Source of the DNA: Harriotta raleighana
Taxonomy: Eukaryota
Assembly (NCBI GenBank): GCA_050575255.1
Contig: JBNZDD010013567.1
Span: 1,050,001 to 1,114,000, forward strand
Direction of reading: 5' to 3'
DNA length: 64,000 bases
The position numbers were made by a program, and so were the translations under genes. Under the pieces are notes generated by a model that made no database searches, was not told where the DNA came from, and worked only from the letters and a program-made list of their open reading frames with translations. Positions 38,655-63,379 of this stretch are shown piece after piece (position 1 is the stretch's first letter; each line of letters opens with the position of its first letter).

Positions 38655-39486
38655 TAATTTTTATAATATAATAATTATTAATATCATGCCGAATTGCTGC
38701 AGTTAACCTGACCACGAGTGTTAGCGAGAGAGACGTAGCTGAGAAAGTCTGTGCAGTTTGGAATGCAATAATCTGCTGTCATTCTGGATTGATTGCTCAA
38801 AGAGTCAAACATCAAGAAAACAGATGATCTTTGATTCTTTCCACTTCACGTCCAGCCATTCCCGAGCAACTGCCAATCAATTGAGAGGACGCCGGGGAAG
38901 ACACTTGTGATAGGTTGATGAATGTCTAGATTTAATGGGTTGTGCTGTGTTGAGTGCCTGATCTTTTATGAGAGTTTATTTTCTGAGCATTTTTTCCCCA
39001 ACATCATGCGTTCCATTTGGCTTTTAACAAACCAGCAAGTTTAATGAAGCCGTCTTGCAGAAAGTCCAGGAAACCAAACCGTTGCAGAAAGAGCTTTGTG
39101 TCTTTCAGAAACCATCTCTTAAATTCATTAGTTGAGAAGCAACTAAAGTCAACATCAATGAAACAAGCAACGTCGCATCAGAATCTTACAGTGAATGTGA
39201 CAGCAGAAAAACTCTTGCCCTCTGGAAACAGCTGATGAACATACAAGCAGCCCAGCCTTGAAGGGGACGAGTAACTTATTTCATACCATTGATTCTTTCG
39301 GGGTTTATTTTAAGTTACGTTAAGGATTCTCCTATCTATTACCGAGAAGCTGGAATCATCGGTTGGACTAGGATTTTCTATGTGTTAATCAGGTTGTTCA
39401 GCCCTCAGCAATCCAGTGAGGAACAGTGAACACCCAATTGAAGCTTTAATCTTCTTGCTGCCTATCTCCACATTAGCTTCAGTGGA

Positions 39487-39545: not shown

Positions 39546-40499
39546 ATGAATGTCACAGCTTTGTCTCCTTTCGGGAGATCACCTGAAGATAACAGGTTCC
39601 ACTGGCTGCCACACAGTGCTAACAGTTCCTCCAATTTGTCAGCTGCGGCATGTCAACATGTTAATGTCCCAGACGAGATTTTCTTGTCATTTGGGATTGT
39701 GAGTTTGGTGGAAAACATTCTGGTGATGACAGCAATCATTAAGAACCGGAATTTGCATTCCCCTATGCACTATTTCATCTGTTGCCTGGCAGCAGCAGAT
39801 ACGCTGGTCAGTGTCAGTAACATGGTGGAGACTGTGGTTCTTATTCTAATGGAGCGAGGAGTTATGGTAGTGCAGAACTATCTCCTCAAGCAGATAGACA
39901 ACCTGATAGATATGATGATCTGTAGTTCAATAGTTTCATCGCTCTCTTTCCTTGGAGCCATCGCTGTTGACAGGTATATCACTATCTTCTACGCCTTGCG
40001 CTATCACACCATCATGACAAGACGACGCGCTGTGGCCATCGTGGTTGGTATCTGGGTGGTCAGCATCGTCTCCAGCACCATCTTCATCATCTTCTCGGAA
40101 AGCAGCGCAGTGGTCATCTGCCTCATCTCCTTCTTCTTCGCGATGGTGATCTTCATGGGGGCCCTGTACCTCCACATGCTTACTCTTGCCCGAATCCACG
40201 CCAAGCGGATCGTAGCCCAACACCAGAAGCGAACACTTCACCAAGCCACCAGCATGAAAGGAGCCATTACATTCACCATCTTGTTTGGCGTCTTCCTCAT
40301 TTGCTGGAGTCCTTTCTTTCTTCACCTCATCCTAATTATCCTCTGCCCTACCAACCCGTACTGTCAGTGCTTCACCTCGCATTTCAATATATTTCTGATA
40401 CTCATCATTTGTAACTCTGTCATTGATCCGATCATCTACGCTTTCAGAAGCCAGGAACTCCGCTGTACTTTAAAGAAACTAATTTGCTGTTCCTGGTAA
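39546..40499 (+). CDS. MC1R: Melanocortin 1 receptor (class A GPCR), single coding exon, 317 aa
   Basis: Seven TM segments with melanocortin receptor motifs SLVENILV, KNRNLHSPM, AVDRYITIFYALRYH, CWSPFFLHL and NSVIDPIIYAFRSQELR; MC1R-type C-terminus CCSW; upstream of beta-tubulin as in human. Confidence 0.95.
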   Translation: MNVTALSPFGRSPEDNRFHWLPHSANSSSNLSAAACQHVNVPDEIFLSFGIVSLVENILVMTAIIKNRNLHSPMHYFICCLAAADTLVSVSNMVETVVLILMERGVMVVQNYLLKQIDNLIDMMICSSIVSSLSFLGAIAVDRYITIFYALRYHTIMTRRRAVAIVVGIWVVSIVSSTIFIIFSESSAVVICLISFFFAMVIFMGALYLHMLTLARIHAKRIVAQHQKRTLHQATSMKGAITFTILFGVFLICWSPFFLHLILIILCPTNPYCQCFTSHFNIFLILIICNSVIDPIIYAFRSQELRCTLKKLICCSW

Positions 40500-40727
40500 G
40501 GTGCCCGGACCTAAATCATTTTTTTAATATAACAAACAAAACAGGGATGGATGTCCTGCCAAAGTTAAAGGCCTGACATAAATCCTGTTTGTTGTTGTAA
40601 TATCAGTTCTTACAGTGTTTTGTTTTTGGCTGATACTCTTAACTAACCTTTTATTTTCTGAAATGCTCATTTGGTTTGAAAGTGACTTGTTTCCTCTTCT
40701 ACACATGTTAGGGGACAGGAAGGGACA

Positions 40728-40733
40728 AATAAA
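40728..40733 (+). terminator. Candidate MC1R poly(A) signal
   Basis: First AATAAA after the stop, about 230 nt downstream. Confidence 0.4.
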
Positions 40734-41025
40734 CTTGTTTCCTTAATGCTGCACATTCAAAGCATCATGTATCCTTTCTATTTCCTATCTTTTACCTCTG
40801 TGTGTATATCAACGTTTTCACAATCTATTTCTTCACAGTCTTGTCAAAGAATCCCCCACCACACACACACACATATCCACCAAGACCAGGGAACCGTTAT
40901 AGCTTTGATACCAGTGTGTGATGAGGAACTATTTTGACCTGAATTTTGTTAAGTTGATATATATAGACTGACGTAAGACTTTTTAGTCATCAAATTGTCT
41001 CTTTGCATTCCCCCACTCCCAACTC

Positions 41026-41067: not shown

Positions 41068-41603
41068 TCTCGATAGGAATACAATGTTTCCTGCAACACC
41101 TTAAAAATATCTATGAGAATCCATTGCCTAAGATTCGAATCCACGTTGCAAATATGGTAAATGCAGTTACAGTTTACTAGAGTAAAAAAAATCAGAGGCA
41201 TTTATATATTGGTCCCCAAATGGCATTTGGCAGCATTAAAACAAAGCTAAAATAATAGTTTTGTCTCTTATTTTGTGAAAGTCATACACATTTGGAATAA
41301 CAATTTAGTTGTGGAAATCCATCCTGTTAATTAAAATCCACTACCATATAAAAGAAAATAATTTTTATACTGTTGAAAGAATAACTCCACCTATTTTAAA
41401 AGTTGCAAAGGTTCTTTGACACTCCAAAAATTACATCACGGTATCACACCACACTGGTTCATGTGTTTTATCAAACCTGGTGTACATTGAGTTCATTGAA
41501 TATTTGTTTCTAGTGGAGTGATAAAGCTACCTAAACATTTATACTTGCTGCAGTCGTGCACACTAATGTAGGAATGGAAAACTGTTAAACTTGACTATGA
41601 ATA

Positions 41604-62622: not shown

Positions 62623-62679
62623 ATGAGAGAAATCGTCCATATCCAAGCTGGCCAATGCGGCAACCAGATTGGTGCCAAG
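62623..62679 (+). CDS. TUBB3: Beta-tubulin exon 1 (MREIVHIQAGQCGNQIGAK), probably class III; gene continues beyond the window
   Basis: Canonical 57-nt first exon with AAG|gtaaca donor. Beta-tubulin identity is certain; the isotype is assigned only by MC1R-TUBB3 synteny. Confidence 0.85.
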
Positions 62680-63379
62680 GTAACACTTATTATGCCTCGA
62701 ATCTTTTATTAACAGGAGGAGGGGGTATAGGGGGTGGTGGTGGGGGATGTGGGGATGGAGAATGCTGTTGAAATGACAGTGTAGTTTCAATGCAAAATTA
62801 AAAACCTTGAGAAATGTGCTTTCAATGATTTTTTCCCCTCCCCAAATTATATACATACTCTATATACATACTCTATATATATATATATATATATGTATTT
62901 AACACATTTTTAATTTTAAGATTGAACTGGAGATAGTTCAATTGATGCCATGCATTAGTTATGCAACTGATATATATTTTTTTTAAATGTCATGTGCAGT
63001 GAGTGAGTGAGTGGAGTGGAGTGAGAGTGGTCATCAAATGTCTTTCTGCCTCTTAGGATGATGAGTGGATTGCAATNATTTTTTAAATGTCATGTGCAGT
63101 GAGTGAGTGAGTGGAGTGAGTGTGGTCATCAAATGTCTTTCTGCCTCTTAGGATGATGAGTGGATTGCAATCACATACTGTGTTCGAGTCTGGGCTCGTT
63201 TGGATTAGTCAACATGGCGAATTGGTGTGTGCTCATTGTTGCTGATGAAAGAGAGAGAGAGAGAAGGGAGGGAGAGAGTGTGTGGAAGGCTTTGCACGTT
63301 GAAACGTGTCTCAATGCTGATTTGAACAGTCGCAGGGTTCTGCAGACAGAGCCACACCCGATATACTGCAGATATACTG

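Follow-up and report, generated by a model that had tools for sequence, protein, structure and literature searches.

In the holocephalan Harriotta raleighana, the MC1R coding sequence ends in what looks like a 5′ splice site, and a beta-tubulin gene lies downstream of it. A comparable layout gives rise to MC1R-TUBB3 chimeric mRNAs in human, and the first-pass annotation of this DNA had proposed that the stop-skipping donor and the linkage of the two genes may both date from the gnathostome ancestor. The locus raises the question of whether the site is an old splice switch or a latent sequence that follows from the way in which the receptor ends. We addressed it in a stretch of 64,000 nt (G000:C13567:1050001-1114000, hereafter the window; positions refer to it unless a contig or locus is named).

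The MC1R-TUBB3 locus and its gene order

The locus is laid out as follows:

39546-40499, plus strand: MC1R coding sequence, uninterrupted, 317 aa, ending Cys-Ser-Trp-stop (open reading frame and database matches)
40500-62622, plus strand: MC1R-tubulin interval, 22.1 kb, with 23 AATAAA and 20 ATTAAA hexamers on this strand
62623-62679, plus strand: coding part of TUBB3 (class III beta-tubulin) exon 1, followed by a phase-0 donor (homology)
L006 5581-5689, 6803-6913 and 7842-8917, next stretch of the contig, past the window: TUBB3 exons 2-4

The top database match of the receptor is the MC1R of Callorhinchus milii (90% identity), and the next MC1R matches are those of sharks and rays (66-75%). 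The four paralogous melanocortin receptors found elsewhere in the genome are 50-59% identical to it, and none of them has the Trp-stop ending. The gene is then nearest to MC1R proteins and stands apart from the other four receptors of its own genome, as an MC1R ortholog should. Two of the loci found in the search, L003 and L005 (G000:C13716:564272-575528), are melanocortin receptor genes that lie on opposite strands with about 9.5 kb between them; by inspection they are MC5R-like and MC2R-like, the known MC2R-MC5R pair. About 65 nt upstream of the MC1R ATG, a pyrimidine-rich tract with terminal TAG and CAG (39445-39483) is a possible acceptor of a 5′ UTR intron, in which case the coding exon would be internal and measure about 1 kb.

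The co-oriented beta-tubulin gene, which the first-pass annotation had placed 22 kb downstream, is there and belongs to class III. The assembled protein has 450 aa, matches the tubulin portion of every database model compared (10/10) at 94-98% identity, and carries a class III-type C-terminal tail. The distance from the MC1R stop to the tubulin ATG is 22,124 nt, a value that includes two assembly Ns of unknown size. By inspection, no recognisable gene was found in the interval among ATG-started reading frames of at least 100 aa, and TUBB3 is the next gene downstream of MC1R on the same strand, as in the human locus. AATAAA hexamers are not enriched in the interval, where about 19 would be expected from composition against the 23 present, and they count as no more than further opportunities for cleavage. 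Near-identical direct duplicates surround assembly Ns at two places in the window: the longer, at 51400-54014 (99.7% identity over 1200 nt, offset 1414), spans the N at 52682, while the N at 63077 is spanned by a shorter duplicate at about 62970-63180. Both are probably scaffolding artefacts.

About 17 kb after the tubulin gene, at G000:C13567:1137597-1140331, lies a gene with a Rubicon homology domain, which we take to be DEF8-like. On the other side, the immediate neighbours of MC1R (window 3653-31959) presumably correspond to ANKRD11 and an SLC22-family transporter. TCF25, the upstream neighbour of MC1R in tetrapods (PMC9251544, available part), is found on the minus strand, about 360 kb upstream (G000:C13567:727672-732943). 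Judging from these positions, the upstream flank of the block differs from that of tetrapods. A comparison with the elephant shark among its species describes the order tcf25-mc1r-tubb3-def8 for Xenopus and mammals (PMC9251544, available part), and a wider block is reported as conserved in teleosts (PMC3151243, available part). Overall, the arrangement supports an MC1R-TUBB3 tandem order common to this holocephalan and bony vertebrates.

A donor-like site over the Trp and stop codons

The final MC1R codons are TCC TGG TAA, followed by GG, with the Trp codon at 40494-40496 and the stop at 40497-40499. The feature of interest is:

40493-40501, plus strand: donor-like 9-mer CTG/GTAAGG, its GT formed by the last base of the Trp codon and the first base of TAA (sequence)

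Used as a donor, the site would end the exon at 40495 in phase 2. The near-consensus donor straddling Trp317 and the stop, which the earlier annotation had pointed out, is borne out both by its sequence and by its pairing to U1. As a measure of strength we used pairing and duplex energy against the 5′ end of the genome's own U1, a cruder measure than MaxEntScan. The site pairs with U1 at 7/9 positions, with a duplex energy of -8.5 kcal/mol, and 63/6882 GT sites on both strands of the window pair as well or better, which places it in the top 1%. It is the strongest donor-like site within the MC1R coding sequence, and all three genuine donors of the tubulin gene are weaker (-6.5, -7.0 and -6.9 kcal/mol). 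In the MC1R-tubulin gap, 4 GT sites pair with U1 at least as well.

A part of this strength comes with the ending itself. The annotation had already cautioned that TGG followed by TAA creates GGTAA automatically: TG/GT is forced by TGG plus any stop codon, positions +3 and +4 come from TAA, and the free positions are -3 C and +5 G alone. When the free positions were enumerated, a site of at least this strength had a probability of 0.06-0.10 given Ser-Trp-stop, and the motif GT[AG]AG one of 0.10-0.19, both ranges depending on the assumed base and stop-codon frequencies. The site thus reads as a good donor by its sequence, and one that is only modestly surprising over chance.

Then, we evaluated the conservation of the ending. 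Trp-stop was found in 18/23 chondrichthyan species (26 cluster members, 302-411 aa), and also in sturgeon, turtles, birds and the coelacanth, the last with a changed penultimate residue. Given this distribution, the Trp-stop ending, which forces TG/GT, is likely ancestral, without being invariant. Among the 120 listed of 794 near-length matches, 40 end with Trp at this position and 76 (one of them MC5R-like) run past it. The Trp is kept in 65 of these 76 extended receptors, and in 60/65 the codon of the next residue can begin with T, so that the GT may persist; descent from the stop codon accounts for such persistence equally well.

Trp-stop is absent from the models of 5/23 chondrichthyan species, two of the five being aberrant or partial. 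In the elephant shark, the nearest relative, both MC1R models are Cys-terminal, while Heterodontus ends with Leu and Narcine with Tyr. The Cys-stop of the elephant shark could be the spliced product of the same donor, and the agreement of two independent models favours a plain substitution. The long models of Pristis, Heterodontus and Carcharodon were also considered as donor products and set aside: one of them diverges too early, another has an N-terminal extension, and another is a partial model with Ser at the junction. The aberrant C-termini of the white shark and sawfish models (P0274 and P0009) are incompatible with this donor and may stem from errors of assembly or annotation.

At the DNA level, a metagenome scan returned 6 loci, of which one was a teleost-type MC1R (L012) and four resembled other melanocortin receptors. 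In L012, the sole other MC1R seen as DNA, the Trp site reaches -3.8 and the stop of the gene itself -2.1. The stop codon also varies: it is TAA in this fish, TGA in an alpaca primer (PMC4313674, available part) and TAG in a quail primer (PMC7005409, available part), and positions +3 and +4 of the site are therefore variable. The comparison of positions +3 to +6 covers this one teleost MC1R as DNA and the two primers, which omit +5 and +6. Taken together, the proposal that donor and linkage descend from the gnathostome ancestor holds in part: the tandem order is shared, and the Trp-stop ending is likely ancestral. A working donor, or read-through, in that ancestor is unsupported, considering the mouse without chimeras, the Cys ending of the elephant shark, the weak teleost site and the variable stop codon.

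Transcript end and possible uses of the site

Whether the site could be used depends also on the sequence that follows, which contains the hexamer noted at 40728 by the earlier reading:

40728-40808, plus strand: canonical AATAAA (40728-40733), then a T-rich, G-poor stretch (sequence; predicted poly(A) signal)

The AATAAA begins 229 nt past the MC1R stop, with a TGTA upstream at 40596. Downstream of it, positions 40769-40808 are 53% T and 10% G, and G makes up 10-11% and T 37-53% of the 75 nt that follow the hexamer; this G-poor stretch contains no G-rich element of the human type beside the predicted cleavage site. We consider this hexamer the likely MC1R poly(A) signal.

If transcription ran through, a splice from the donor to tubulin exon 2 would bridge 27,085 nt and add four residues before a stop. 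The predicted clash between a phase-2 donor and a phase-0 exon is real in this respect. This stop is complete at nt 13 of exon 2, which leaves 96 nt to the following junction and 207 nt to the final one; under the 50-nt rule (PMC13187750, available part), such an mRNA is therefore a predicted target of nonsense-mediated decay. Joined directly to exon 2, 3 or 4, the donor would add 4, 19 or 25 residues, respectively; among these joins we found no chimeric message with a stable frame of the human kind, which runs in frame through exon 1a or stops in the last exon. The four residues added by the exon 2 join (L006 5581-5593) resemble the short tail of teleost MC1R, a likeness that is likely a coincidence, because L012 encodes that tail contiguously.

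In our judgement, the strong donor-like sequence is probably latent, a by-product of an old Trp-stop ending rather than an ancient fusion switch. The MC1R transcript would end at the AATAAA 229 nt past the stop, and the Trp-stop ending would be kept for the short tail of the protein or by simple descent. In human MC1R, Cys315 is palmitoylated and Ser316 is phosphorylated. With the ending retained, a usable donor would therefore be present in many vertebrates, and an isoform switch would arise only in lineages, such as the human one, that gain suitable acceptors together with a weak poly(A) site. Rare read-through to tubulin exon 2 here would extend the receptor by four residues up to a premature stop, and the message would be degraded by nonsense-mediated decay. 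A latent donor is coherent with the chance estimate (0.06-0.10), the 63 equally good GT sites of the window, the losses of Trp-stop, the weak site of L012, the mouse without chimeras and the one common 3′ UTR of alpaca MC1R. Against it stand the top 1% strength of the site, its being the best in the gene, the ending shared by 18/23 chondrichthyan species, a 75-codon frame 216 nt away, and 108 database fusion models with Trp or Cys at the junction, not all of which need be artefacts; moreover, poly(A) strength is unreadable from sequence.

The 75-codon frame belongs to the first alternative, local use of the donor. The two features involved are:

40683-40711, plus strand: acceptor-like site in the 3′ UTR, with branch-like TGAC (40683-40686), pyrimidine tract and TAG (40709-40711) (sequence)
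40712-40937, plus strand: hypothetical 75-codon continuation of MC1R (40495 joined to 40712), stop TGA at 40935-40937 (frame)

According to this explanation, which we regard as unlikely, a 216-nt intron (40496-40711) is removed and the stop skipped, which yields, from an mRNA that ends at a distal poly(A) site (ATTAAA at 41235 or 41330), a tubulin-free receptor whose 75-residue tail brings it to about 391 aa. Besides the branch-like motif, the pyrimidine tract and the TAG, it is favoured by the layout, similar to that of human MC1R-002 with its tail of 65-66 residues (PMC4676704, available part), and by the fact that the region 40683-40937 is single-copy in the genome search. Furthermore, only one of the 40 acceptor-like sites of the gap (1/40) opens at least 75 codons (median 9), a length reached in 31/2000 shuffles, but this was a post hoc find and the acceptor rule is crude, with about 1.8 sites per kb. 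The AATAAA also lies 16 nt inside the putative exon, ahead of its TGA, so that cleavage there would leave a message without a stop. The tail does not resemble primate exon 1a (E 0.30), and no chondrichthyan database model examined has such a tail from this position. In its wider form, the donor would be active in cartilaginous fishes through the acceptor ending at 40711, producing the 391-aa receptor, and Trp-stop would be a splice switch as old as gnathostomes; we find this improbable. If it were true, different lineages would use different acceptors, and human MC1R-002 and the TUBB3 chimeras would be one outcome.

A second alternative needs no splicing: U1 snRNP would bind the site and damp 3′-end cleavage or nuclear export, thereby tuning the receptor level, and the leaky cleavage of human would be a derived use. 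The predicted U1 pairing is strong and lies about 230 nt upstream of the AATAAA, and 5′ splice-site motifs in unspliced mRNA are reported to repress cleavage and to cause nuclear retention through U1-70K and ZFC3H1 (PMC9074902, available part). The site is lost or weakened, however, in the elephant shark, in the teleost and in quail (TAG stop), which argues against a conserved need, and we consider this explanation to have little chance of being correct.

A way to look for conserved read-through is to examine the database proteins that are longer than MC1R. Tubulin is carried by 118 of the 120 listed of 165 longer MC1R relatives (P0121-P0240), and the fusion taxa among the matches listed are turtles, crocodilians, birds, squamates, monotremes, a marsupial, placentals and 4 teleosts. 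In the best 120 of 165, the junction residue is Trp or Cys in 108 models, as TG plus one base gives. The linkers of these 120 range from 0 to 533 residues, with 85 different six-residue starts among the 112 that are non-empty, and among the matches listed they differ even between close relatives. Tubulin exon 1 is read into by 94 of the 120 listed long matches. The top long match reaches 437 bits, below the 459-572 bits of the MC1Rs of Chondrichthyes; no chondrichthyan or Logan-contig fusion is found among the 120 listed of 165, and no tubulin fusion among the 26 chondrichthyan cluster members (302-411 aa). This pattern shows a widespread tandem order with an available GT rather than real splicing, and the models are probably artefacts of predictions that followed the homology with the human fusion. 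A misnamed MC1R is probably concealed in many of the database records titled "tubulin beta-3 chain". As for alpaca, short genomic amplicons of blood DNA have been sequenced (PMC10541998, available part), and the 790-aa "isoform" records probably derive from them, a link that we draw ourselves. With scattered linkers, inclusion of exon 1 and no chondrichthyan listed, the fusion models were set aside as proof of conserved read-through.

Read-through splicing of MC1R to TUBB3 from this donor as a conserved gnathostome mechanism is, in our view, very improbable: the gene order and donor position are as in human and fusion models are annotated in reptiles, birds, mammals and 4 teleosts among the matches listed, but mouse has no chimera (PMC3064779, available part), the linkers are scattered and 94 of the 120 listed enter an exon that human chimeras skip, no chondrichthyan or Logan-contig fusion occurs among those 120, the long alpaca records are probably from genomic amplicons (PMC10541998, available part), and the join here would lead, over 27 kb and past a canonical poly(A) signal, to four added residues and an early stop.

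Placing a raw donor sequence and an MC1R-TUBB3-DEF8-like order in a holocephalan is the result of this analysis, whose significance is otherwise small. If the donor were used in a cartilaginous fish, a feature called "human-specific" would become an ancient or recurrent change of a GPCR tail, testable in any vertebrate.

Comparison with known systems

Composite terminal exons are a known case in which a stop codon lies inside a 5′ splice site, and transcripts show both the spliced and the unspliced form. The MC1R exon of this fish resembles them in having its stop in the donor and a poly(A) signal downstream, so that splicing and cleavage could compete; it differs in that both of their forms are seen in transcripts, whereas here the unspliced form alone is supported, by homology. 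For MC1R itself, we found no report of donor use or of MC1R-TUBB3 chimeras outside mammals in the literature searched, which covers few of the subscription papers on shark and stingray receptors.

Mouse Mc1r is like this locus in its donor sequence and downstream tubulin gene, and we infer a chimera-less state here too. Its 5′ splice site is identical to the human one and its TUBB3 intron 1 is shorter, and no endogenous chimera was detected in mouse according to the available part of PMC3064779, whose authors term the chimeras human-specific. The donor sequence alone is therefore not predictive of use. Conversely, the mouse 3′ UTR has 2,287 nt and reaches the Tubb3 promoter (PMC3064779, available part), whereas the hexamer here stands 229 nt past the stop. 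In alpaca, 3′ RACE gave one common MC1R 3′ UTR, with AATAAA (PMC4313674, available part).

The closest comparison is with human, where the published junction follows the TG of the Trp codon (PMC3064779, supplement; available part); the human features given in the first-pass annotation, a receptor of 317 aa that ends Cys-Ser-Trp and a donor in use at that point, agree with this. The position after the TG of the last codon is the same here, as far as the DNA can tell, and both genomes have a co-oriented TUBB3 directly downstream of a 317-aa receptor with the C-S-W end. In MC1R-002 the human donor is joined to an acceptor in the 3′ UTR, giving 382 aa with a tail of 65-66 residues (PMC4676704, PMC3064779; available parts). 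The locus studied here shares with it the place of the donor, the presence of an acceptor-like site in the 3′ UTR and a similar frame length (75 vs 65-66 residues); the tail sequences are unrelated, and the AATAAA falls inside the putative coding exon. Human Iso1 continues by way of exon 1a, of which we found no homologue here, to TUBB3 exon 2 in frame (797 aa), while in Iso2 the donor is joined directly to exon 2, out of frame (432 aa) (PMC3064779, PMC4676704; available parts); tubulin exon 1 is skipped in both sequenced chimeras (PMC3064779, available part).

The resemblance to "one human chimera" that had been claimed for the out-of-frame product extends to the frame, since the direct exon 2 join is out of frame in both species, and not to the stop, which falls 13 nt into exon 2 here, with predicted decay, and in the last exon in human Iso2, where we infer the boundary by homology. 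The transcript ends differ as well. The human chimeras rely on a poly(A) site that is inefficient and has G-rich elements, and MC1R is 2.5 kb from TUBB3 (PMC3064779, available part); here, the hexamer is canonical with a T-rich, G-poor downstream region, and the distance is 22.1 kb. Coherently, a strong synthetic poly(A) site placed in human constructs sharply lowered splicing (PMC3064779, available part). Under the latent-donor reading that we prefer, the human chimera would have been built on an old, ready-made site and not on a new one.
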